Positions 2,798-39,712 of a stretch of DNA of 64,000 bases are shown here, piece by piece. Under the pieces are notes generated by a model. That model worked only from the letters and a program-made list of their open reading frames with translations. It did no database searches and was not told the origin of the DNA. The stretch comes from Candidatus Bathyarchaeia archaeon. GTDB lineage: Archaea > Thermoproteota > Bathyarchaeia > Bathyarchaeales > Bathycorpusculaceae. Numbering within the stretch: the first letter of the stretch is position 1; each line of letters begins with the position of its first letter. A program made the position numbers and the translations under genes. The DNA is taken from positions 64,001-128,000 of the forward strand of contig JBEKSS010000003.1 of NCBI GenBank assembly GCA_049516875.1, given 5' to 3'.

Positions 2798-3439
2798 CTA
2801 ATGTGGAGCGTATGACGTTGAAGTAGGAGCGCGCGCTCTGATAAGGACTATCGTCTCAAAAAACGGAAGATCTTGCTTCGCAATGATGTTTGCCCCCAAA
2901 CCTTTCTCCTCGAAGCCCTGCAAAGTCTCCTCGACATTAGAAAGCGTTGATTGCAACAGCAGGATTTCTCCAGTGGGCTTCAGATATTCTGGGGCTTCAC
3001 GAATGAACTTGTCAATTACCTCTTTTCCTGAATCACCACCAGCCCAAGCCCACCCCACCCAAGAGTTTTTTTCACTCTCTTCTGATGGAAGGTACGGAGC
3101 GTTGAAAAGGATCAGATCGAATTCTTTTCTGATTCTAAGCGGGGAAAACAGATCCCCTTGAACAAAAAACACGCGATCGGCAACACCATTGATTTCCGCG
3201 TTTTTTCTTGCGCACATGACAGCATAAGGATTTACATCAATCGCAACCACTCTGCTTGCCTTCTTGGCCGCAATTACGCCCAAGATCCCACAACCAGTAC
3301 CCACGTCAATAACCTTACCGCCATCTCTGATTGCCAAGTTTTCAGCAAAGAAAAAGGAGTCCTCGGCCGGCTCGTATACGTTTTCCAAGACATTGAACAC
3401 GCAGTCAGCAAAGAACACCTTTTTACTTGGTGATGACAT
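2798..3439 (-). CDS. HemK2/MTQ2-family protein methyltransferase (release factor Gln methylase)
   Basis: VYEPAEDS N-terminal motif, DVGTGCG SAM-binding loop, FNAPY (NPPY-like); downstream of rsmA. Confidence 0.88.
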   Translation of the reverse strand: MSSPSKKVFFADCVFNVLENVYEPAEDSFFFAENLAIRDGGKVIDVGTGCGILGVIAAKKASRVVAIDVNPYAVMCARKNAEINGVADRVFFVQGDLFSPLRIRKEFDLILFNAPYLPSEESEKNSWVGWAWAGGDSGKEVIDKFIREAPEYLKPTGEILLLQSTLSNVEETLQGFEEKGLGANIIAKQDLPFFETIVLIRARAPTSTSYAPH

Positions 3440-4241
3440 TGGCTAATGCTCCGATGTCTTCTGGTGTGAGTTCTCTCACTCGACGGTCACCTAGAGGAAG
3501 GGAATCAGCAATTTGGATTGCGTCTTTTTTTGCACTCCATGCTTCCTTTAGGTATGCCAGAGCTGCGTTTCTAACCGTCCTATTGCGCCTCGTAAAGAGA
3601 ACTTGAAGGAAGCGTTGGAATGACACCTCACTCCTTAACTCAAACGATGGTGACCTCTTTGGCTTCAAGCGTGTTATGATTGAATCTATTTTTGGTTGCG
3701 GATAAAACATGGACTTAGGAATCTCGTCCAAAAGCTCAACCTGTGCATGAAAGTACGTGAAAACTGTCAACCATCCGTAGTCTTCACTTCCAACAGGAGC
3801 TACAAGTCGATCCGCAAATTCCTTTTGAAAGACCAAGACTGCGCAGTCGAAGCCCCTTTTGAAGAGCCATACAAGTAAACGGGAGGAGATTTGATAAGGC
3901 GGAATTGAAACAATTTTATTAAATGAGGGGACACCGACCTTGAGAATGCTGCCTTCAATTATCTTCACGTTGGATGCCCCCCTAAGCTGTTCACGCAAAA
4001 TGTCGGCAAGCCGCGCGTCAACTTCGACAGCAAGGACCATCTTGCATTTTTCCCTCAAGAAACGAGTCAAAAAACCCAGCCCAGCACCGATCTCCAACAC
4101 AGTATCATCACAATTCAGTAAAGCATAGTCAACCATTTTTTGAAAAAACCGTGATTCAATCATGAAGTTCTGGCCTAAACTCCTCTTCGGCATAATTCGA
4201 TGCCTTCGAAGCAAAGACTTCGTATCTTCCAATAGACTCAT
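3423..4241 (-). CDS. rsmA: 16S rRNA adenine dimethyltransferase KsgA/Dim1
   Basis: LGQNF, VLEIGAGLG, SIPPYQISS, FYPQPKIDS motifs. Confidence 0.95.
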   Translation of the reverse strand: MSLLEDTKSLLRRHRIMPKRSLGQNFMIESRFFQKMVDYALLNCDDTVLEIGAGLGFLTRFLREKCKMVLAVEVDARLADILREQLRGASNVKIIEGSILKVGVPSFNKIVSIPPYQISSRLLVWLFKRGFDCAVLVFQKEFADRLVAPVGSEDYGWLTVFTYFHAQVELLDEIPKSMFYPQPKIDSIITRLKPKRSPSFELRSEVSFQRFLQVLFTRRNRTVRNAALAYLKEAWSAKKDAIQIADSLPLGDRRVRELTPEDIGALANVITK

Positions 4242-6908: not shown

Positions 6909-8243
6909 CTACTTGAGATCAACCGGCAACCCCTTTCCGAAGAAAGGAAGTTTCTTTTGTCTACGCATCGTCTTCAACATACGCCGCATCATTACGTACT
7001 GTTTCAGAAGTTCCTTCACTTCTTTCTCACTGGTACCTGAACCCCTGGCTACACGTTTCATCCTTGAAGCGTTGAAGATTTTCGGGTTGTCCTTCTCGGC
7101 GGGCGTCATAGACTGAATCATCACGCGCCACTTTTCCAGACGCCCTTCAGCAGTGTTCAGCATCTCATCCGGGATTTTGTAAGACATTCCCGGAATCAGA
7201 TTCATGAGTTTCTTAAAGGTGCCCATTCCCTTCATAGCTTCGAACTGCTCATACATGTCTGTTAAAGTGAACTTGCCGCTCAAGATAGCCTTGGCCTTCT
7301 TTTCTGGAACTGTTATTTCTGCCTCACGCACTTTGTCAAGGAGTGTTTCCAAGTCACCCATTCCAAGCAGACGGCCAACGAAACGTGAAGGAACGAACGC
7401 TTCGACATCCTCTGTTTTTTCTCCGGTACCGATGAACTTTATAGGTGCACCCGTTGCCGCCACTGCAGATAGAGCACCGCCTCCCCTTGCAGACCCATCG
7501 AGTTTCGTGACAAGTATTGAACCTATAGGTGTTGCTTCATTGAAGGCTTTTGCCTGAACCAACGCTTGCTGGCCTATTGTCCCATCGATAACAAGCATAA
7601 CTTCATCAGGCTTGATGCTTCTTTCGAGCATCTTCATTTCTTTGATGAGTTCTTGTTCCTCTTTATGACGGCCGGAAGTGTCGACGATGACCACGTCCTT
7701 CTCGCTAAACTGGTTCAAGCCTTCGGTAACGACTTTAATGGGATCCTTTGTCTTCAAGTTACCATACAATGGCACGTTGATTCTGCTTACTAGCTGCTGA
7801 AGCTGAGCGTAAGCGCCGGGTCGAAAAGTGTCCGCACAGATTACAGCGGGCTTTAAGCCTCTCTTCTGAAAATATCTTGCAAGTTTGGCTGCAGCAGTTG
7901 TCTTTCCAGAACCTTGGATGCCAACAAGCATTATTATTCTTCTTTTTCCCGGCTCCATTTTTATTGGTGTAGGCTTGTCTCCTAGGAAACGCGTCAACTC
8001 TTCATAGACTACTTTTATAACGTGCTCGCGTCTGGAAATGCCAGGCGGAACTTTTTCCTTTAGCGCCCTTTCTTCTATTCTTTTGGAAATGTCGAGTACA
8101 AGTTTGACGTTAACATCTGCTTGAAGCAGAGCCTTTTGTACATCATGCACAAGCTCCTTGACTGTGGCCTCGTCTACAACGGAAGCCCTGAAAACCTTTC
8201 TTAATGCTTCGTAAAGTGACGAACCCAGGTGATCAAGAGACAT
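6909..8243 (-). CDS. srp54: Signal recognition particle protein SRP54
   Basis: GIQGSGKTT, DTSGRH, TKLDGSARGGG, Met-rich M domain. Confidence 0.97.
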   Translation of the reverse strand: MSLDHLGSSLYEALRKVFRASVVDEATVKELVHDVQKALLQADVNVKLVLDISKRIEERALKEKVPPGISRREHVIKVVYEELTRFLGDKPTPIKMEPGKRRIIMLVGIQGSGKTTAAAKLARYFQKRGLKPAVICADTFRPGAYAQLQQLVSRINVPLYGNLKTKDPIKVVTEGLNQFSEKDVVIVDTSGRHKEEQELIKEMKMLERSIKPDEVMLVIDGTIGQQALVQAKAFNEATPIGSILVTKLDGSARGGGALSAVAATGAPIKFIGTGEKTEDVEAFVPSRFVGRLLGMGDLETLLDKVREAEITVPEKKAKAILSGKFTLTDMYEQFEAMKGMGTFKKLMNLIPGMSYKIPDEMLNTAEGRLEKWRVMIQSMTPAEKDNPKIFNASRMKRVARGSGTSEKEVKELLKQYVMMRRMLKTMRRQKKLPFFGKGLPVDLK

Positions 8244-29786: not shown

Positions 29787-31037
29787 TTATCCGAATTTTT
29801 TAAGGGTCCTTTCCATCCTATTCAATGCTTCTTCCAGCTTTTCATACGCAGCAGCGTAAGACAATCTGAGATAACCTTCACCGCAAGCGCCGAAGGAAGA
29901 GCCTGGAACCGTTAAAACTTTCGTTTCCTTCACAAGTAATTCTGCAAGCTGCTCCGAAGAGAGCCCTGAACCCCTAATGTTAGGAAAAGCGTAGAATGCA
30001 CCTTTCGGAAGCTGGCATCTGAAGGCCCCAATTTCATTGAGGCTCTTATAGACAAGGTGACGTCGCCTATCGAATTCCTCCACCATTTCTTCCACGAAGG
30101 CCTGTGACCCTTTCAACGCGGCCAAAGCAACGTACTGCGAAAAAGTGTCTACGCACGCAACGGTGTATTGATGCACCAGCCAAAGGGGCGAAACAAGGTC
30201 TTTTGGCCCGTACACGTATCCAACTCGAAGCCCTGTCATTGCATAAGTCTTGGAAAAGGAGCCGACAACCAAGGTGCGTTCCCGCATACCTGGAAACGCT
30301 GCGAGGCAGTAGTGCTTGACACCGTCGTACACCATTTTTTCGTAGACTTCATCGGATATCACAATCAAGTCACGCTCAACAGCAATTTTCGACAGGGCAG
30401 CAACTTCATCATAGGAGAGGACCGACCCCGTGGGATTATTCGGGGAATTCAATATCATCACACGTGACTTTTCGGTGATGAGTGACATCACATCATCGAT
30501 AGAAGGTCTGAAATCGTTCTCTTCAAGCAAGGGAACATGAACAGGAACACCCTCCGCCAACAAAACACCGGGCTCATAGACAACAAATCCAGGGTCAGGA
30601 ATCAGTGCCTCATCACCCTGATTCAACAACCCCATCAGAGCAACGAAAATCGCCTGCGTCCCACCGACGGTGATCAGAATCTCACAGTCAGGGTCATAGT
30701 TAAGCCCATAATCGTGATATGCTTTTTGTGTTAACGCCTCCCGCAACTCAGGAATCCCATTTGTTGGCGCGTAGTGTGTTTTGCCTTGTCTAACCGCTCG
30801 CCAGCCTCCGTCCAACGCGTGCACAGGAACGCAGAAGTCGGGTTCGCCTACGCTCAAATTGACACAAGTTGGCATTTCCTGAGCCAAAGCGAAAAAGCGC
30901 CGTATTCCAGAGGGTTTTACCAATTTCAGGCGTTCCACGGGCTCTACGTGCGAAACCAATTCCCATTCCTCACTGTTGATTGTGTTGACCAGCATAAAAA
31001 TCTTGCATGCCGAAACGGCCACCCGAAACGGTCGCAA
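29787..31037 (-). CDS. Class I/II PLP aminotransferase (AspC-like)
   Basis: GEPDF, NSPNNPTG, SDEVY, SFSKTYAMTGLRVGY; true start probably about 25 codons inside the ORF. Confidence 0.93.
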   Translation of the reverse strand: MRPFRVAVSACKIFMLVNTINSEEWELVSHVEPVERLKLVKPSGIRRFFALAQEMPTCVNLSVGEPDFCVPVHALDGGWRAVRQGKTHYAPTNGIPELREALTQKAYHDYGLNYDPDCEILITVGGTQAIFVALMGLLNQGDEALIPDPGFVVYEPGVLLAEGVPVHVPLLEENDFRPSIDDVMSLITEKSRVMILNSPNNPTGSVLSYDEVAALSKIAVERDLIVISDEVYEKMVYDGVKHYCLAAFPGMRERTLVVGSFSKTYAMTGLRVGYVYGPKDLVSPLWLVHQYTVACVDTFSQYVALAALKGSQAFVEEMVEEFDRRRHLVYKSLNEIGAFRCQLPKGAFYAFPNIRGSGLSSEQLAELLVKETKVLTVPGSSFGACGEGYLRLSYAAAYEKLEEALNRMERTLKKFG

Positions 31038-31071
31038 TCGGCATACTTAAAAGCGCAGCCAGTATACAAAA

Positions 31072-31587
31072 GTGTATCCATTCGCCACAGTCTCTAGAGG
31101 GAAAACCTTGAAGTTAAAAGACAGCGTACAATCCTGGCTAACAGGCTCCATCAACGACCCGATTGTGAGAATCATCGCCAAAAATAGTCACTTAACCAAA
31201 ACCCAGCTCGAAACACTGCTCATAGACATTTTGTCTGAGAATATTGCTGGGAAACCGTTGAAATACGATGAAAAGGCCAGCTTAAGGCTAACCAAGGCCA
31301 AAATAAGCCGCGGAGCGTTTAACAGGACTCTGCGACAGGCCAAAGGAAACGTCATAAAATCCATCTACACAGTGTTACTCTTAGGGTACTTGGGAGTCTT
31401 TGAGAGCACAACTCTCGACCCCTACCTCGAAATCGCGAACAAACTGCACGAGTACCTCGAAGCGTACAAAGACATCCCGAACAAAGGCGAGGAGCTAAGT
31501 GACCACCTGAAAGTCATAGAAATGATACGAGAACAGCTGGAAACAAGTCTAAAACAGCTCTCAAGTCCATCAGAAACCGTCACGTGA
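31072..31587 (+). CDS. Origin-linked hypothetical protein, probable HTH
   Basis: SHLTKTQLETLL...KISRGAFNRTLRQAK resembles an HTH recognition helix; clean 171-aa ORF. Confidence 0.7.
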   Translation: MYPFATVSRGKTLKLKDSVQSWLTGSINDPIVRIIAKNSHLTKTQLETLLIDILSENIAGKPLKYDEKASLRLTKAKISRGAFNRTLRQAKGNVIKSIYTVLLLGYLGVFESTTLDPYLEIANKLHEYLEAYKDIPNKGEELSDHLKVIEMIREQLETSLKQLSSPSETVT

Positions 31588-31872
31588 CGTCACAAATCAC
31601 ACCTCCAAACATGGTTCTACAGGCCACATGACACCGGAAAATGGCATGACACAATCCAAGGCCGCAAACTTGAAAAGGACCACGAATTCGGCTTCTACAA
31701 GAACCCACGACGGGGCACAGAATTGGTCAACATCTGTCACTCAAACGGTGATGTGTGACGTCATGAAGGGTCGCATTGATGATGATCACCATAAGCCTTA
31801 AATTCTCAATGGTAAACTTGTGATGTGTGACGCAACATGTGTGAATCACACACAGTCACGCGAGAATCACAG
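31578..31872. promoter_or_regulatory. Array of GTGA/TCAC motifs (putative protein-binding sites)
   Basis: gtgatgtgtgacg at 31748 and 31820, inverted cgtcacaaatcac at 31588, palindromes cgtcacgtgacg (31578) and tgtgtgaatcacaca (31838). Confidence 0.65.
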
Positions 31873-31883
31873 AGGCGCGCGAG

Positions 31884-32597
31884 TTGCCAGATGTATTGCT
31901 TGTCCTCTTGAGCATATTGCTTGCTACGACTATCATCGCGGCAGTTGAGTACTATAGACAACTTCGCAGGGCGCAAAAAGAGTATGAGAAGGCTAGAGAC
32001 GCTGTTGAAGATATAGTGTTGAGTTTCAATAGGCAGTTCAAACATGAAGCCGACAAACTAGAAGCTCTCGGATATAAGATTGAGGCTGCCGCTTCGAGGA
32101 CTGATGGTGCTGTGAGGAAAGCAGAAGAACTTGACGGAATGATGAGAGCCCTCGAAAGTAGAATTGCCACGGACTCAGAGGACAGAAGAAGTATGTCCAT
32201 GCACTTGGCTGACCTTGAAAGAAAGGCGTCTGATTCTGTTGCATCGCAAGGGACAATTGCGTCCAAGATTGCCAGTCTGGAGGAACAGGCTAACCAGTTC
32301 AGGCTAGCCCCTGAAACGCATTTTGAAGGTGTGATACCATTAAAGAGAGAAAAGGCCATGGCCCAGCTGACTGACACTGAAGTATCAGTTCTGGAGTTGC
32401 TGGTTTCTGAAGGGGCTAAGACCGCGCCAGAAATCAAGGAAAGAGTCAAGCTCAGTCGGGAACACACCGCCCGACTGATGAAGAAGCTTTATGAGGAAGG
32501 ATATTTGGAAAGGGAAACTGGGAAGATTCCATTCAAGTATACCGTCAAGAAAGAAATGGAGAAACTTTTGAAGAAAACCGAAAGCGAAGCAACGTGA
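31884..32597 (+). CDS. Membrane-anchored coiled-coil protein with C-terminal winged helix
   Basis: N-terminal TM (VLLVLLSILLATTIIAAV), long heptad-like region, LTDTEVSVLELL...LSREHTARLMKKLYEEGYLER wHTH. Confidence 0.8.
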   Translation: MPDVLLVLLSILLATTIIAAVEYYRQLRRAQKEYEKARDAVEDIVLSFNRQFKHEADKLEALGYKIEAAASRTDGAVRKAEELDGMMRALESRIATDSEDRRSMSMHLADLERKASDSVASQGTIASKIASLEEQANQFRLAPETHFEGVIPLKREKAMAQLTDTEVSVLELLVSEGAKTAPEIKERVKLSREHTARLMKKLYEEGYLERETGKIPFKYTVKKEMEKLLKKTESEAT

Positions 32598-32850
32598 TCG
32601 CGACTTTTTCTTGAAGTAATGTGCTGCAAGTGTAATAAGGGGCGGGTAGCTGATTTGTCACGAGCAAGGCTACAAGACATGTCGGCTTCTCACTAGTTGG
32701 AAGAAGAACCCAATGCGGGTGCAAGGAGTAAGAGAGTTGCTCGATTCTCAACGAAGTGTGCGGTGTCGAGCATAAAGATTGCAGTCGTCTCGCAGGCCAA
32801 TATGATTAACGGAGCCACGGGTTCTGACAGGAAACTCCATGGCAACTGAA

Positions 32851-33279
32851 TCAGGTCATCTTTTGTTTTACAGTTGCTTGTGGAACACCTTGCGTTGCCT
32901 TATATCTCAGGTTGGTGGAAGACCCCGTTTTCAGGACCACTCCTTTCGTCGCCATCCTAGAAAGGTATGTAGCCACGGTGCTAAGACTTATGGGTTCTTT
33001 GAGTTCCTGTTCATAGACGGATTGGACTTCCCGCGAGGAAAACCAGACAACCGGAAAGTGCCTCTGGACGATGACCCGAACTTTATCGCACTTTGAAAGC
33101 TCGCTCCCCGGGACCATGGATCCGGCCCCAGGATTGCCACCGCCGGGCATTCCACCCAGCAACTCTACCAAGTCCAAGAGGCGCAAAGCCTTGTCCCTAG
33201 TCACTTGCCCCTCGAAACTTATCGAGTAGCGATTGCCCTCAGTGTCGAACAGATCCACGCGTATTTTTCTCGCAGGCAT
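32851..33279 (-). CDS. Origin-adjacent winged-helix protein
   Basis: N-terminal beta module (KIRVDLFD...YSISFEG), Gly-rich linker, FSSREV...ISLSTVATYLSRMATKGVV wHTH; ATG at 33279. Confidence 0.78.
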   Translation of the reverse strand: MPARKIRVDLFDTEGNRYSISFEGQVTRDKALRLLDLVELLGGMPGGGNPGAGSMVPGSELSKCDKVRVIVQRHFPVVWFSSREVQSVYEQELKEPISLSTVATYLSRMATKGVVLKTGSSTNLRYKATQGVPQATVKQKMT

Positions 33280-33475
33280 GAGTAGTGTGCACCTTAAGAT
33301 GGTGTTCACAATTTTACAGTTCACAAGTTATAGGTGTTACGGTGAATACTCTCACAGTAAAAACCAAGGAAAAGGCAGGACAACTGAAATAGAGCCTGAT
33401 GCGCAGTGCCCTTGGCGTCACAGCCGTCACACTGCTGCAAACAGAGCAGAGTTGACCTGGCTGGGCGCAGATGCG

Positions 33476-34065
33476 ATTCTCCAGTAGAAAGCTAGGGGTG
33501 GCCTATTCACAAGAATAAGCCGTAAAGCAGTCAATAAATCAAGTAATAAGGCTGAGAAAGAGACATTACTGAGTCAAGTTCACAAGGTCTTCACAAAAAG
33601 TGAACGAGACAAGTGTTACTAGGGCGTGTATTAGTCGTTCTTTCCCAGTGTTATGTTGTAAATATATCAGTGAACATCCGTGAGACTATATTGGTATACA
33701 AAACATCAACATTCATTCCAGGGAGTTTGGAGTGAGAGCCACCCCTTGCTTTCCATTGGAGAATGCTAGCGAGTTTCTTGGCGCCGCTTGTGTGTGCAAT
33801 TTTTTCTAGTGTGTATCTAAAATCTTTAACAGTGATCATTATAATAAGTTCAAGGTAGTTACCGTTCAGAGTATATTTCTTACAGAGAAAGAAATCAACA
33901 TTATTTTGAAAATTAAGACAGAGTTCCAGTAGAAATTGTGGGGCGTGTGCATGATTGAAAAGGATAGCGCCATAGTGAAGTTGCTTTTCTTTTAGGATCG
34001 TGGTGTTGTGCATTTAGTTTTCTGTATGACACAGCTTATTCCTCTACACAGGAAAGGGGGGTGTT
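33476..34065. other. Putative replication origin (oriC) with ORB elements
   Basis: Inverted pair attctccagtagaaagctaggggtgg (33476-33501, +) and attctccaatggaaagcaaggggtgg (33739-33764, -); third gttccagtagaaattgtgggg (33923-33943); AT-rich spacers; directly upstream of cdc6. Confidence 0.85.
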
Positions 34066-34092
34066 GCCTTTGAAAACCGAGGAGGAGTTAGG

Positions 34093-35334
34093 ATGAGTGA
34101 TGTTGATGCTCTCAATGATGTTTTCGAGAGGTTTGTAAGTAACGCGAGGATTTTCAAGGATCGGGAAGTGTTGCGTCACGATTATCTTCCTGACAGACTT
34201 CCTCATCGAGAAGAACAGATTAGACGTCTCGGTGAAACTGTGGCTCCCGTGCTTAAGGGTGCGAGGGGCTCCAATCTATTCATTTATGGGAAAACAGGCA
34301 CAGGCAAAACGGCCGTGACAAGGTACGTGCTCAGTCACCTTGAGTTTAGAGCGAAGGAGTTCAACGCGCCCGTTAAGTTTTGTTACGTCAATTGTCGTAT
34401 GGCTGGATCTGACTATCGCGTCTTTGCGAGTCTGTGTCAAAGCATGGGTGTGTCTATTCCTTTCACGGGTTTGTCTGTCGGTGAGGTGTTTGATAGGTTC
34501 AGGGCTGGGCTTGATGTTTCAAGGGTCATCCTCATCATCGTGTTGGACGAGGCTGACGCGCTGGTCAAGGCCCGCGGTGATCGTCTTCTCTACGAGTTAA
34601 CGAGGATAAATGAAACCCTGGGCAAAAGCAAGGTGACCCTTATCGGCATTTCAAATGACCTTCGGTTCAAGGAGTTTCTCGACCCTCGAGTGCTCAGTTC
34701 GCTCAGTGAAGAGGAGATTGTTTTCAGGCCTTACGATGCCAGCGAGCTGAGGAACATCCTTTCGGAACGTGCGAGGACAGCTTTTTGCGATAATGCGCTG
34801 TCTGACGCTGCTCTTGGTCTCTGTGCTGCATTAGCCGCCGCTGAGCATGGGGATGCAAGGCGAGCCCTGGATCTGCTGCGTGTGGCCGGCGAAGTTGCGG
34901 AGCGAAAGGGAGCGAGTGTCGTTGTCGAGGAACACGTGCGCGACGCTGAGAGGCATATTGAGCATAACCGCGTGTTCGAAGGGCTTCAGAATCTGACCTT
35001 GCACTCTAAGCTTGTCGTTTTGAGCGTTTATCACCTGAGCAGGGCAAACGTCAGCGGCGCGATTACTGGTGAAATCTCCGAAATATATGATGAACTGTGT
35101 GCTGAACTGGGCGTCACGCCCCTGACACAACGTCGGTTGAGCACATTGGTGAACGAGCTTGATGCCATGGGATTGGTCAATGCGAAGGTTGTGAGCATGG
35201 GGAGATATGGTCGTACAAAGAAGATAAGGTTAGAGATTCAACGAAGCACTGTCAAAGATGTGTTTGCTGGCGACAGCAGGCTCGGGCGTCTAATCGAGTA
35301 TAGTGCAAAATGCCTCTCAAAGCATACCAACTGA
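34093..35334 (+). CDS. cdc6: Orc1/Cdc6 replication initiator
   Basis: LPHREEQI, GKTGTGKT Walker A, VLDEAD Walker B, GDARRALDLL, C-terminal wHTH with GRYGRTK. Confidence 0.97.
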   Translation: MSDVDALNDVFERFVSNARIFKDREVLRHDYLPDRLPHREEQIRRLGETVAPVLKGARGSNLFIYGKTGTGKTAVTRYVLSHLEFRAKEFNAPVKFCYVNCRMAGSDYRVFASLCQSMGVSIPFTGLSVGEVFDRFRAGLDVSRVILIIVLDEADALVKARGDRLLYELTRINETLGKSKVTLIGISNDLRFKEFLDPRVLSSLSEEEIVFRPYDASELRNILSERARTAFCDNALSDAALGLCAALAAAEHGDARRALDLLRVAGEVAERKGASVVVEEHVRDAERHIEHNRVFEGLQNLTLHSKLVVLSVYHLSRANVSGAITGEISEIYDELCAELGVTPLTQRRLSTLVNELDAMGLVNAKVVSMGRYGRTKKIRLEIQRSTVKDVFAGDSRLGRLIEYSAKCLSKHTN

Positions 35335-35405: not shown

Positions 35406-36971
35406 TCACGCGAATGGAATGACTGTGACTTCCATGGATTGGAGGTTCACGACTGGAACCTTAGCCGGTGTTGGTGTAAAGTTGTTTCTCCGCATGTAGT
35501 CTGTTTGTTCTTGCCAACATCCTGAGTTCACAATCAAGACGCCACGGTAGTTAGCGTACTCTAGCGCGTGCACATGCCCAGCATGGAAAATGTCCGGGAC
35601 TCGCTGGATTACAAGCGGGTCCCTGTTTTCGGGCGATAAGGGTGTTTTCCCTCCATATAGTGGTGCCAAGTGACGGCTTTGCAAAAGCAGTCTCATCGCT
35701 TTCTCAGGGTGGCTGTGGGTCATATCTGGCACCGTTGAAATTACATCGTCCAAGCTGCGCCCATGGAATACTAAGATCTCTACACCGTGGAGGCTGAGAG
35801 TGCATGGACTGCCCAGAGAATAGACTTTTCTTGACTCCTGCAGACTTTCAAGGAAGGTGTTTGCTATTGCTGGTTGAGGTAGGGCTTTTCTCGGAGCATC
35901 GTGGTTTCCCGGCGTGACGATTACTTCTATGTAGTCTGGGATTTGTTCAAGGTACTTGGAAGCGAGCCTGTACTGTTTGTGCACGTCCCTGATGGCCAAC
36001 TCTCTTACCTGGTTGGGATACACTCCCACACCGTCAACGATGTCGCCTGCTATCAAGACGTATTTGACGTGACTTGCAATTTCTCTTGTCTTTTCGTTGC
36101 CGTATTTACCGTTAAGCCACAGTATGAAACGGTCAAAGGCTTCTCGCGTGAATTTCGTGCTGCCCACATGCATGTCTGAGGTAAGGACTGCGTAGACTGG
36201 TACCAGAGCTTTGTGTGGGGTTTTTTGGGCTACGTCTGGTAGGATGATGTCTTCAGCGATGAGCAGGTTGCTTCTTGTTTTTACCACGCCCAAGCAGACA
36301 GTCTGATCGAGCATAAGGAACCGTGCCTTTTTCTGGAGGTCGGATGATGCGTCCTGGGGCACAAGCACGACCATGCTTGCCGTTAAATCCTCGACCGTGA
36401 GTATTATCTTCTGTTTCGACTCTCTCTTTTCGGTTATCATACCGATTATTTTGAGTCTTGTCCCTGACTGGGCCCTCAGTGCATCCATGACCGACGCGGC
36501 GCTTTTCACGTCCATCCTCTGTCTGAGCAGTTTCTCCGTCTGTCTGAACCTGTCTTGGAAATATTCTAGGAAGTCTTCGATTGTTCCGTTTGAGCTCAGT
36601 TTAGTGCTTGGGTCGTCAATTATGTTGATGCTTGCGTCAACATCTTTTGCGTAGGGGTGGAAGGGCATCTTGTCTTCTGTTATTTGTGGCGTTTGTTGTC
36701 CTATCTGTGGTTGGGAGCGGTTTTGTGAGGGTTCGCTGATGATTTCTTTTGTCGGTTTCTCCGTTTCAATTATCTGTTCTAAGAAATTCCTTTCGATGAA
36801 GAATGGTCTTTCTCCGAGTTCTTCTAGCTGTTTGATTGCTTTGCTCATGACTTCCGCTGGGTCTTCCGTCGCCATTATTATGTTTAGGAATTCGAAGGCT
36901 TCTTTATTTAGCTGGTATCCTGCCGCAAGGGTTAATTTCACAGCTTTTTGCAGTTTTTCTGCTTCGCTCAC
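35406..36971 (-). CDS. polB: DNA polymerase D small subunit DP1 (proofreading exonuclease)
   Basis: OB fold plus SDMHVGS, AGDIVDG, PGNHD, HGRS, GHVH phosphoesterase motifs. Confidence 0.96.
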   Translation of the reverse strand: MSEAEKLQKAVKLTLAAGYQLNKEAFEFLNIIMATEDPAEVMSKAIKQLEELGERPFFIERNFLEQIIETEKPTKEIISEPSQNRSQPQIGQQTPQITEDKMPFHPYAKDVDASINIIDDPSTKLSSNGTIEDFLEYFQDRFRQTEKLLRQRMDVKSAASVMDALRAQSGTRLKIIGMITEKRESKQKIILTVEDLTASMVVLVPQDASSDLQKKARFLMLDQTVCLGVVKTRSNLLIAEDIILPDVAQKTPHKALVPVYAVLTSDMHVGSTKFTREAFDRFILWLNGKYGNEKTREIASHVKYVLIAGDIVDGVGVYPNQVRELAIRDVHKQYRLASKYLEQIPDYIEVIVTPGNHDAPRKALPQPAIANTFLESLQESRKVYSLGSPCTLSLHGVEILVFHGRSLDDVISTVPDMTHSHPEKAMRLLLQSRHLAPLYGGKTPLSPENRDPLVIQRVPDIFHAGHVHALEYANYRGVLIVNSGCWQEQTDYMRRNNFTPTPAKVPVVNLQSMEVTVIPFA

Positions 36972-37425
36972 ACTCTGAGTTCTCCATTCTTGCTTTCTGG
37001 CGACTACTACGAAGCCTTCTTCCTCGCCCCGTTATAGCCTCTATTCGGCTCAGCAGATGCAGATATTCCGTCAACGCGGCTGTTTCGTCGTCTCTCATGA
37101 GAGAGAACGCGTTCTTTTCGGGGCGGATGACTTCTATTGTTCTGTATCCTTTTTCTTCTATTAACATGTTTAGCTTTGCAGCGCGCATCGTTAATTTCGC
37201 CATTGCTGTGAGTCTCGGTGGTATCTGGATAGGTTAAGCTTGATTTTCAGGTATCTGTTTCTCTAGAGTGTCACATCTGTTGGGTTTTCTGTTTTTCGAG
37301 TTAGACATGTGCCGATTATACTTCGGCTCTTCAGTTGTAACATCAATACATTAATCTATACGTCCGGTTTCTTGTTCAGACGTCTAAATCCTCCTATATC
37401 GAGAATCTCATGGTTGGTGATATTC

Positions 37426-38409
37426 ATGAGTGAAATGCGCAAGGTGCAACGTACTCCAGGTGGAACTTTTTTCGTGTGCCTGCCAAAGTCTTGGGCTGAG
37501 CAGTACGGCTTGAAGAAGGGATCAATTCTCGCTCTGAGCGAGACCGGTGACGGTAAGCTCCTTATAGACACTAAACACGGTGTTGAGCCTTCGCCGCGAG
37601 TTGTCACCTTGAAACCCGGACCCTATTTAGGTCGTGAAATCATAGGAACCTACCTGCTTGGTTTTGATGTAATTCGCATTGAGGGAAAAGAACGCATTAG
37701 CTTTGAGATGCGTGACATTATTAAGAGTGCGGTTAGCCACCTAGTCGGACTGGAAATAGTTGAGGAGGATTATGCCAGCATCGTTCTACAGTGTTTGTTG
37801 GAACCTTCAGGTTTTCCGCCCGAAAAGATTCTGCGCCGTGGATACACTATTGCTGCTAGTATGCACAGAGACGTTGCCAAAGCTTTCGTCGATGGCGATG
37901 TTCCGTTGGCGAAGAGCGTAATGGCAAGGGATGACGAAGGCAACAGACTCTACTTCCTTCTTGTTCGTATTCTTCGGACGATAATTCAGAACCCACGCCT
38001 GAGTGAAAAACTGGGTGTCGGCCCGATTGAATGCTTGGATTACCGCTTGGCCGCGAGCCTTGTGGAAGCGATTGGCGACGAGTGCGTGCGCGTATCCATG
38101 AAAACGGTTGAATTAGACGGTGAGAAACTGGACGAAAACCTAAGGAAACAGTTTCTAGCTTTTGACGCGATTTGCTTCGGGGCTCATGAAGACGCTCTAA
38201 CGGCTTTTTTAACGGGCGCCATAGATCTGGCAGAGAAAGTTCGGGGGACGCGAGACAAGATTGAGAAAGAGTTTGCCAAAATCGAAGAAGTTGCTAGAGC
38301 ACAGTCACTTGACATTGTGACCCAAATATTATCAGCAGCCTCATTTCTGAGACAAATCTATGAGCACAGCGTGGACATAGCTGACTTGGCGGTTCCCAAA
38401 AAATCTTAG
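37426..38409 (+). CDS. AbrB-PhoU phosphate uptake regulator
   Basis: RKVQRTPGGTFFVCLPKSW AbrB domain followed by PhoU helical repeats; ATG 37426 after GGTGA. Confidence 0.9.
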   Translation: MSEMRKVQRTPGGTFFVCLPKSWAEQYGLKKGSILALSETGDGKLLIDTKHGVEPSPRVVTLKPGPYLGREIIGTYLLGFDVIRIEGKERISFEMRDIIKSAVSHLVGLEIVEEDYASIVLQCLLEPSGFPPEKILRRGYTIAASMHRDVAKAFVDGDVPLAKSVMARDDEGNRLYFLLVRILRTIIQNPRLSEKLGVGPIECLDYRLAASLVEAIGDECVRVSMKTVELDGEKLDENLRKQFLAFDAICFGAHEDALTAFLTGAIDLAEKVRGTRDKIEKEFAKIEEVARAQSLDIVTQILSAASFLRQIYEHSVDIADLAVPKKS

Positions 38410-38420
38410 GGGTGTTCTTC

Positions 38421-39641
38421 CTAAGAGGGAAGCTTGTCTACTTTTTGTGGCTGTTTTGCAAGTGAAACTTTTTCCCCTAGCCTCAATTCATCAGTATACT
38501 GAACTTCGCCGTACACGTCACAGTGGGATTCGATTGTGATTCTCTGTCCGTAGATGTTGTTCGCGCTTGCACCTGTCCGCAGAAGGATTTCTTTTCCATA
38601 GACATTTTCTGCACGCGCATCCCTGTCGATGACGACTACGTCTGCGTGTATGGGGCCGTGTACTTCGCCTCTCCTTCCTATTTCGACGACGCGCGCAGTC
38701 ACACCTTCGCTCGTGGTGATTGAACCACCGACTTCCACGCGCTCCTCTGCTGCGATTTTGCGTGCGCGGACTGTTCCACCGATCTCGATGTCTCTTGTTG
38801 CGATATCATCACTGACACTTACTCTTCCTCCTACCTCCAGCCTTCCTGAGAGCTTTAGGGAGCCGTCGATGTCAACTTCGCCTCCAACTTCCATATGGCA
38901 ACCTTGAGTCAAGCCTGCTATCTCGACAGTTCCTCCCACGTCGATTTCCTCAAACTCCAAGTCCCCGTCAACCCTGAATGAACCTCCGACATCTATCTCG
39001 CCTCCTTTGTTCTTCCCGGCGAGCCTTACCGTGCCGCCTACGTCTATTTCCTCAAATTCCAGAGGGCTAACCGACTCAAAAGTGCCGCCTACGTCTATTT
39101 CACGAATTCTTCCTCCCGTGACCCTCGCAGTGCCTCCTACTTCCAAGCTTTTAACATCTGCCTTGGATCTTATTGTGAGACTTCCTCCTACCTCGATGCT
39201 CTCTGCAGTAACTTCACCTTTCGCTTCAAAGGCGCCACCGATTTCTACGTCTTCAGCCTTCACGTTTCCATCAACCTTCAAGCTCCCTCCCACTTCAACT
39301 TTCCCAACAGAGAGGCTTTTGCTCACATGCAAGGTGTCGTCGACGTCAATGTCGCTTGCGGTCATGTTCCCGTCGACCTCCAGACTGCCATCTTCAACTT
39401 CAACCTCATCTCTTATTTCTAGGTCTCCGTGAACTGTCACGCTGTTTTCGGCTTCAAGGTTTTCCGCGGACAGGCTGCATTCGAAGGTGTCATCTCCTTC
39501 ACAATAAACGGTGCCAGAGACCGTTACTCTGGGTTGTGGAGGAGACCCTTTCACGGTTACATGTCGTCCGATTTCAAGGTCTCCGTTCACGTTGTCTAGT
39601 GTAAGTGTGCTTCTTGAAGGAACCGATGTCCTGTTAGTCAT
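38421..39641 (-). CDS. Bactofilin-like beta-helix repeat protein
   Basis: About 12 tandem ~17-aa units with (E/D)(V/I)GG core; ATG 39641 after GGAGG. Confidence 0.75.
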   Translation of the reverse strand: MTNRTSVPSRSTLTLDNVNGDLEIGRHVTVKGSPPQPRVTVSGTVYCEGDDTFECSLSAENLEAENSVTVHGDLEIRDEVEVEDGSLEVDGNMTASDIDVDDTLHVSKSLSVGKVEVGGSLKVDGNVKAEDVEIGGAFEAKGEVTAESIEVGGSLTIRSKADVKSLEVGGTARVTGGRIREIDVGGTFESVSPLEFEEIDVGGTVRLAGKNKGGEIDVGGSFRVDGDLEFEEIDVGGTVEIAGLTQGCHMEVGGEVDIDGSLKLSGRLEVGGRVSVSDDIATRDIEIGGTVRARKIAAEERVEVGGSITTSEGVTARVVEIGRRGEVHGPIHADVVVIDRDARAENVYGKEILLRTGASANNIYGQRITIESHCDVYGEVQYTDELRLGEKVSLAKQPQKVDKLPS

Positions 39642-39712
39642 TTCACACCCTCCATATTGGACATGCTGTACCACTTTAAAAGGGGCACTCACATTTGGTG
39701 ACTAGTAGCTCC

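Follow-up and report, generated by a model that had tools for sequence, protein, structure and literature searches.

Three linked families of small, candidate DNA-binding proteins beside a cdc6-adjacent replication origin in Bathyarchaeia

What part, if any, do the small genes next to an archaeal replication origin play at that origin? The question is raised by a 64-kb stretch of DNA (contig JBEKSS010000003.1; the whole stretch is called the window, and coordinates are window positions) from the 2.43-Mb genome of a Candidatus Bathyarchaeia archaeon. In the open reading frame (ORF) list of the window, three small ORFs, named here A, B, and C, lie between an aminotransferase gene and an Orc1/Cdc6 initiator gene (cdc6). 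An earlier note on this DNA had proposed that they tether or segregate the origin without a ParA ATPase. Gene linkage, protein architecture, and two conserved motif arrays suggest that the trio is a deeply conserved, origin-flanking set of small DNA-binding proteins and not a complete segregation machine; this reading is preferred, tentatively and with slightly less than even confidence.

All three ORFs were found directly to the left of an origin with origin recognition boxes (ORBs), where the earlier note had placed them, and C is divergent from cdc6 across the ORB-bearing spacer, so that its upstream region does run into the origin. The C-cdc6 spacer is 813 nt long. The features expected of a cdc6-adjacent archaeal oriC, namely ORB-like boxes, a low-G+C core (27–30% G+C at 33790–33940, the AT-rich core between ORB2 and ORB3), and an adjoining Cdc6 gene, were all present, and the ORBs were conserved across the aligned spacers of 20 relatives. 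The form of the spacer agrees with the general description of archaeal origins in excerpts of PMC4010727. Judged from its sequence, the origin is real in form. A further conserved word, CAGAGTATATT, was seen at 33866–33876 inside the AT-rich core and is neither an ORB nor one of the TTCACAA sites described below; ATATACTCTG is present in 36 of 75 C-Cdc6 spacers of close relatives. The host genome also has a second Orc1/Cdc6 paralogue (30% identity; G000:C2:7616-8722).

Each of A, B, and C had approximately 3000–3900 homologues at E ≤ 0.001 in a large protein collection, and these were named "hypothetical" or as generic regulators. A pattern scan of species-representative genomes gave 80 close loci, all but one labelled Bathyarchaeia or Bathyarchaeota. 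These shared one gene order, with A present in 79, C in 77, Cdc6 in 74, and the gene that we take to be that of the DNA polymerase D small subunit and label DP1 in 71.

Because the distant loci were selected for carrying C or A, the linkage counts depend on that selection, and related genomes are not independent samples. With C as a single query, one copy was found in 176 of 301 genomes of the class. Profile searches of 401 genomes of the phylum gave a single copy of C in 261 and of A (profile A2) in 180. The two patterns mostly agree by family, with both genes present in f1, f2, f4, f5, f43, f46, f47, and f48 and both absent from f36, f45, f49, and f50; C alone is present in f41 and f42, and A alone in f12. 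Sulfolobales-type genomes gave three weak matches to C in 23 genomes and none to A (0/23). All 20 distant loci of the class chosen around C carried both A and Cdc6, and 10 carried B. C and Cdc6 were divergent over 0.55–1.05 kb in 13 of these and 3.3 kb apart in four, and Cdc6 stood on A's side in three; where B was missing, A and C were convergent neighbours with less than 200 nt between them.

Among 24 loci of other lineages of the phylum, also chosen around C, A and B-like proteins were each present in 12 and Cdc6 in 10. Six loci (L103–L106, L122, and L124) retained the whole order GGGPS-A-B-C-spacer-Cdc6, with DP1 directly next in L104–L106 and L122, 6.7 kb off in L124, and beyond the contig start in L103. 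The C homologues of L103 and L124 come from Nitrosotalea devanaterra and Nitrosocosmicus franklandus, and the similar proteins that the earlier note mentioned for Nitrososphaeria are thereby confirmed, in the same gene order. A Nitrosocaldus-type locus (L115) retained GGGPS-A-B-C up to the contig end. Where cdc6 was not adjacent, the genes were still paired, as C with A (L111 and L119), as C-A-B on one strand (L121), or as B with C (L118 and L123). In five loci from families with A and without C, A and B were always adjacent, and Cdc6 was next in three. Linkage thus holds among the three families and, in two classes, also with a cdc6-adjacent origin; the synteny with cdc6 and DP1 proposed earlier as a check extends over class-level distances.

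Two observations concern genomes without C. In one C-less family, the place between B and Cdc6 is taken by a different ORF, of 124 aa, whose sequence resembles a helix-turn-helix (L132:8416-8787, minus strand). One large family of the class is without C (0/71 genomes); two of its genomes had only the Cdc6 paralogue type (31–33% identity; G018:C16:742-1842 and G024:C7:373-1485) and no orthologue of the window Cdc6.

The upstream regions of B and C both carry dense short-motif arrays, as previously described, and these proved to be far above expectation, conserved, and unique in the genome. The stretch 31570–31883 before B contains 13 copies of GTGAY/RTCAC, against 1.07 expected from the rest of the window, and the interval is the densest of its kind in the window and in the genome. 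The exact word GTGATKTGTGA has five copies in the genome, three of them in the A-B spacer. When 20 such regions were aligned, these three copies and a TATA-like box formed the conserved blocks, and the middle of the spacer was not conserved; TCACACATCA is present in 71 of the 80 A-B spacers of the close loci. Next in density within the whole genome is a GTGAY interval (9 per 314 bp) in the aminotransferase gene to the left of A (approximately 30358–30672). A small RNA or peptide gene in the A-B spacer (a 57-aa ORF at 31628–31801) was considered and rejected, given the unconserved spacer middle and the lack of any Rfam match in 30900–34200 at E ≤ 1.

Before C, TTCACAA occurs five times in 33305–33596, all in one orientation, against 0.23 expected for the whole spacer. 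Two copies lie 26–47 nt before the start codon of C, one lies 4 nt after ORB1, and two lie approximately 80 nt further on; the three copies on the ORB1 side are 230–320 nt from the C start and approximately 500 nt from cdc6. In 20 aligned spacers the copies were conserved to the level of the ORBs, and the word was present in all but one of the close C-Cdc6 spacers (74 of 75, with 250 copies together). The cluster is the densest in the genome; its runner-up, on contig C11, was rejected as a second non-coding array, since it consists of repeats within the coding sequence of a 1020-aa repeat protein. Outside these two arrays, the genome has no non-coding cluster of either kind.

Protein C was borne out as the second winged-helix protein of the locus. 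Its homologues listed were mostly 142 aa long, which fits the ATG at 33279. The model built from a 26-sequence alignment (mean pLDDT 70; 13 invariant columns) has two strands and a helix, then a Gly/Pro-rich disordered linker and the winged helix. C scored above the cut-off of Penicillinase_R (PF03965; 23.3–23.6 bits against 22.6), although over profile positions 18–74 of 115 only and thus not as a full-length BlaI/MecI protein, and the profile matched 22 of the 26 family members at E ≤ 1 (best E 6.9e-5). The winged helix was aligned by VIA to the Fur DNA-binding domain (Z 11.4, root-mean-square deviation [rmsd] 2.5 over 71 residues) and also to Zur, MecI, BlaI, and RosR structures; the Foldseek matches (E approximately 0.01) were generic winged helices. 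The N-terminal domain was not covered in the VIA or Foldseek match lists, which does not imply a new fold, and sequence profiles of C and of A gave no solved chain at E ≤ 1, barring chance-level rows. Longer C-family proteins (208–223 aa) were rejected as fusions and look like over-called ORFs.

Protein B was described earlier as a transmembrane helix, a long coiled coil, and a C-terminal winged helix; the first and last parts held, and the stalk gave only sub-threshold matches to coiled-coil profiles (Tropomyosin, CENP-F, and SMC), so the coiled coil is no more than presumed. The C-terminal 60 residues of B scored above the cut-offs of two winged-helix families, TrmB and MarR (TrmB, PF01978: E 1.8e-8, 34.5 bits against 25.6). 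Residues 4–22 are hydrophobic (Kyte-Doolittle 19-residue mean 2.56) and are flanked by an acidic N side (MPD) and a basic C side (YYRQLRRAQK); none of the three residues before the helix is positive. The positive-inside rule is the established basis for orienting membrane helices. Because the positive charges come after the helix, the winged helix should be cytoplasmic, and B should cross the membrane once, N terminus outside and C terminus inside. The anchor is not signal-peptide-like, and with this short acidic flank and the basic residues behind it, a cleaved signal or an outside winged helix, named earlier as possible refutations, is unlikely. An N-terminal helix with the same acidic and basic flanks was found in 16 of 22 B-like proteins of distant loci. 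The only other match to B in the host genome is weak, coiled-coil in nature, and lies in a 734-aa ORF adjoining a CbiA/ParA-type ATPase match (G000:C11:100726-101246).

Protein A probably starts at the TTG at 31108, because most of the 120 homologues listed are 159 aa long. In an alignment of 20 upstream regions, its TATA-like box and the ATACA-N4-TGTAT palindrome were conserved blocks. No Pfam or NCBIfam match was obtained for A, nor a Pfam match for any of the 26 family members examined, and Foldseek comparison of the model with solved structures gave nothing below E 0.7. The structure model is all-helical (mean pLDDT 70). Two weak leads point to a sigma-region-4-like helix-turn-helix: a VIA alignment of residues 16–89 with 3vep_D, a chain of sigma region 4 (rmsd 2.7 over 62 residues, with a Z of 6.5 that is within noise for helical models), and an Atlas neighbour at 0.78. 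A may carry such a domain. In a wide VIA search only its C-terminal helical hairpin was matched (Z up to 7.2), which again does not imply a new fold. The features of the locus are collected in Table 1.

Table 1. Features of the locus between the aminotransferase gene and DP1 (window positions)
Feature	Position	Strand	Remarks
Aminotransferase gene	29787-31037	-	Left neighbour of A
A upstream region	31046-31077	+	TATA-like CTTAAAAG 31046-31053, then ATACA-N4-TGTAT palindrome 31064-31077
Gene A	31108-31587	+	159 aa, all-helical; ORF opens 31072
GTGAY/RTCAC array M1	31579-31874		A-B spacer
GTGATKTGTGA copies in M1	31590, 31748, 31820		Conserved blocks
TATA-like CCTTAAATT	~31796-31804		Conserved, in M1
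Palindrome TGTGTGA-A-TCACACA	31839-31853		In M1
Gene B	31884-32597	+	237 aa; predicted membrane helix 4-22, helical stalk, TrmB/MarR-type winged helix 162-221
B-C 3'-end spacer	32598-32850		Convergent gene ends
Gene C	33279-32851	-	142 aa; modelled beta-beta-alpha N-domain 4-41, disordered linker, winged helix 63-128
TTCACAA array M2	33305-33596	+	Copies at 33305, 33320, 33506, 33579, 33590
Inverted GTGAAC	33600, 33669		Next to M2
Origin core	33476-33948		Three ORBs and AT-rich core
ORB1	33476-33502	+	27-nt inverted pair with ORB2
ORB2	33738-33764	-	89% complementary to ORB1
ORB3	~33920-33948	+	Third copy of TCCAGTAGAAA core near 33925
Orc1/Cdc6 initiator gene	34093-35334	+	Pfam Cdc6_C, Cdc6_lid, AAA
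DNA polymerase D small subunit gene (DP1)	35406-36971	-	Pfam DNA_pol_E_B, Metallophos; next after cdc6

The pairing of proteins with arrays was inferred from how they travel together. At least three [GA]TGTGA[TC] per 300 bp were found in 10 of 12 distant loci bearing B, against one of 10 loci without B, all ten of which carry A; the cluster was upstream of B in eight of those 10 B-bearing loci. In seven of eight further loci, among which are five ammonia-oxidiser types and a Methanosuratincola-type locus without A, the densest GTGAY interval (7–13 per 300 bp) lay at the B start or upstream of a C-B operon. TrmB-family regulators bind TATCAC-N5-GTGATA (PMC4158304, excerpts). Since the array tracks B across loci and the TrmB family uses similar half-sites, B is likely the binder of the GTGAY array.

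For C, at least four TTCACAA copies were found within 450 nt upstream of the gene in five distant loci (L090, L092, L094, L098, and L117). In five of six ammonia-oxidiser-type loci (L103–L105, L122, and L124), TGTTAACA takes the place of TTCACAA, a one-base difference (GTTAACAA against GTTCACAA), with three to five sites in the C-Cdc6 spacer compared with zero to two elsewhere in the locus; in L104, ORB-like boxes are interspersed among these sites. A change is also seen in the recognition helix of C (LSTV to LS[VIL]I). ORB cores are present in four loci without C as well, with at most one TTCACAA copy (0–1). Two genomes in which C lies at a distance from cdc6 each carry a pair of TTCACAA copies in the cdc6 spacer (P approximately 3–5e-3), and a third has five copies there of a variant that was chosen after the fact; these cases are no more than suggestive of TTCACAA at cdc6 where C lies elsewhere. 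C is the most economical candidate for the binder of TTCACAA, because the array overlaps its promoter and travels with the gene.

On these assignments, C would be a sequence-specific winged-helix protein that binds the TTCACAA repeats, and it could use the two proximal sites to repress or adjust its own promoter; autoregulation is suggested because those two repeats overlap the promoter. It would also sit in the origin through the three ORB1-flanking sites, which are at neither promoter, and could there modulate initiator binding, cdc6 transcription, or origin firing. The TrmB-type winged helix of B is predicted to bind the GTGAY array before its own gene. If the binding assignments are right, it follows from the anatomy of the locus that membrane-fixed B would keep DNA that lies 1.6–2.4 kb away from the ORBs at the cell envelope; any importance of this positioning for initiation or segregation is speculative. 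A, the third member, is a helical protein with a palindrome of its own upstream.

Several results weigh against a function of the trio at the origin. Linkage in the 80 close loci says little, because the flanking housekeeping genes (GGGPS, Elf1, NadE, and nitrilase) are collinear there as well, over the whole 15-kb neighbourhood, and partly so in distant relatives; the position beside oriC may be inherited synteny. In Caldarchaeum-, Methanosuratincola-, and Infirmifilum-type genomes, C lies 92–500 kb from the orthologous cdc6. Four or more copies of TTCACAA or of its A-variant stood upstream of C in only 10 of 44 distant loci, the rest having weaker related words or nothing, and because of this the lack of the array in the four C-less loci is weak evidence for C as its binder; Cdc6 or another factor could bind it instead. 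B was not found in 10 of the 20 distant Bathyarchaeia loci, and its anchor was missing from six of 22 B-like proteins (L083–L085, L097, L118, and L123). The structure models of A and C are of middling confidence. Finally, arrays directly upstream of the gene of their own regulator are what plain autoregulation predicts.

The last point leads to the strongest alternative, which we consider rather unlikely: A, B, and C could be three ordinary autoregulated transcription factors whose place at oriC is inherited order, perhaps with a gene-dosage effect, and which have no role at the origin. Besides the motif in each gene's own upstream region, this explanation would account for the synteny of the housekeeping genes, for the drift of the genes from cdc6 in several lineages, and for the common regulator folds of B and C. 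It does not account for the three of five TTCACAA copies that stand beside ORB1, far from either promoter, and are conserved like the ORBs, or for the interleaving of array and ORB-like boxes, which persists with a changed motif in ammonia-oxidiser-type loci. The arrays being non-coding and unique in the genome, the proteins, if regulators, seem to control this locus only; a membrane anchor with no outside domain is also unusual for a plain regulator. A bolder form of the preferred reading, which we hold to be unlikely, is that the trio is an ancient origin-control module of Bathyarchaeia and ammonia oxidisers, with C as a second origin-binding factor whose sites are interleaved with the ORBs and evolved with them (TTCACAA against TGTTAACA), and with B as the first protein identified that fixes origin-proximal DNA to the archaeal cell membrane.

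The proposal of the earlier note, in which B anchors oriC to the membrane in a ParA-less tethering or segregation system and A and C act as adaptors, is in our estimate quite unlikely. The linkage of the families, the anchor that does not resemble a signal, and the arrays all stood up, and the anchor-stalk-head build of B is kept across classes, with its sole dense site cluster in the genome approximately 2 kb from the ORBs. Replication foci of Sulfolobus are peripheral, with a tether that is not known and a membrane tether raised as possible by the authors (PMC3384333, excerpts). The remainder of the proposal did not fare as well, B being inconstant, a motor protein absent, and tethering or segregation shown by nothing found here. 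The GTGAY sites lie in B's own upstream region, 1.6–2.4 kb from the ORBs and not in the origin. B is the least constant and most dispensable member of the trio, and because it is missing in half of the 20 loci and its anchor in six of 22 proteins, membrane attachment cannot be the core role of the module. No recognisable ParA was found in the window, in agreement with the earlier note: CbiA-family profiles gave no match above the cut-off, and the single weak match is the SRP54 gene (6909–8243, minus strand). The ParA/MinD-type genes of the host genome are on other contigs, and no NTPase belongs to the module there. A contact of A or C with B would be hypothetical, and as Sulfolobales-type genomes are mostly without C and A, the module cannot explain the Sulfolobus observation.

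The weakest alternative, that C primarily regulates a HerA-like DNA-processing operon and was left over here after deletion of that operon, is very unlikely: genes for a HerA-like ATPase (526 aa, DUF87) and a 341-aa protein are indeed present in 30 of the 80 close loci (29 times between B and C), come after C and on the same strand as C in L010 (L010:10680-13221), and have left no detectable remnant in the window and only a 27%-identical HerA-like paralogue elsewhere in the host genome (G000:C4:18152-19387), but C is far more widespread than the pair, keeps its position, arrays, and conserved sequence where the pair is missing (50 of the 80 close loci) and in ammonia-oxidiser-type loci where B and C abut, and is single-copy and visibly constrained.

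The preferred reading can be set beside known systems. The closest analogue of C is UBP, which in Sulfolobus oriC1 recognises the ucm motif lying between ORBs and assists the departure of MCM from the origin (Dhanaraju et al. 2025, PMC12141716, excerpts). In the excerpts of that paper, UBP is the only accessory archaeal origin-binding protein described, and its description extends to Sulfolobales-type organisms only. Like UBP, C would be a small non-initiator DNA-binding protein with a short motif among the ORBs of a cdc6-adjacent origin. The two differ in that UBP is a 111-aa basic beta-rich saddle binding through beta-hairpins, whereas C is modelled as a beta-beta-alpha domain and a winged helix; UBP has hundreds of genomic sites, whereas the TTCACAA array is unique in its genome; and the binding and essentiality of UBP are experimental (PMC12141716, excerpts), whereas C is known here from sequence and model. 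Neither C nor A showed the UBP fold or sequence (Saci_0847/SiRe_1573 family), with the presence of UBP entries in the solved-chain set unconfirmed. By this comparison, UBP appears to be an analogue in role and not a relative. Unlike BlaI and MecI, C is without the C-terminal dimerisation part and has the N-terminal beta-beta-alpha domain instead.

B resembles TrmBL1/Tgr in its TrmB-family DNA-binding domain and in GTGAY/RTCAC half-sites like those of the Thermococcales glycolytic motif TATCAC-N5-GTGATA (PMC4158304, excerpts). According to the same excerpts, autoregulation is known in the TrmB family, and its members consist of an N-terminal DNA-binding domain, a coiled-coil helix, and a C-terminal effector (sugar) domain. 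In B, unlike these regulators, the winged helix is placed C-terminally, only 16 residues follow it, no effector-domain family matched, a membrane anchor and a stalk of approximately 120 residues are present, and the sites form one dense local array and not a regulon. Regulators of the ToxR/CadC type begin with a winged helix in the cytoplasm and continue through a single membrane helix to a sensor domain outside the cell. B differs from them in having three residues before the membrane helix and its winged helix at the C terminus.

Bacterial origin anchors include RacA-DivIVA of Bacillus subtilis. PopZ-ParB is the origin anchor of Caulobacter (PMC3384333, excerpts). As in these systems, B is predicted to be a DNA-binding protein with sites clustered near the origin and a link to the envelope; unlike them, with their ParB/ParA or polar scaffold, B would be in the membrane itself, with no ATPase partner and no homology. 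ParABS, SegAB, and AspA-ParBA differ in turn, as no ParA/SegA-type Walker ATPase is encoded with the trio in the window. Their centromere-like arrays may or may not have a counterpart in the dense unique arrays of the trio, which sit in the genes' own upstream regions.

A literature search of one library, without supplements, found no paper on the A, B, or C families or on a Bathyarchaeia origin. Regulation of archaeal origins beyond Orc1/Cdc6 and the position of origins in the cell are largely unknown, and the trio offers candidates for both. The targets are concrete (two proteins, two short motifs, and one 3-kb locus), and cultured carriers exist among ammonia oxidisers such as Nitrosotalea and Nitrosocosmicus. 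Should the proteins be merely autoregulated transcription factors, they would still be a well-defined pair of predicted protein-operator systems with a conserved, genome-unique site array.

Beyond DP1, the window encodes a MazE/AbrB-PhoU fusion protein (37309–38409, plus strand) and a 423-aa protein with four bactofilin repeats (38421–39692, minus strand). The PhoU gene is syntenic in 64 of the 80 close loci and the bactofilin gene in 29.

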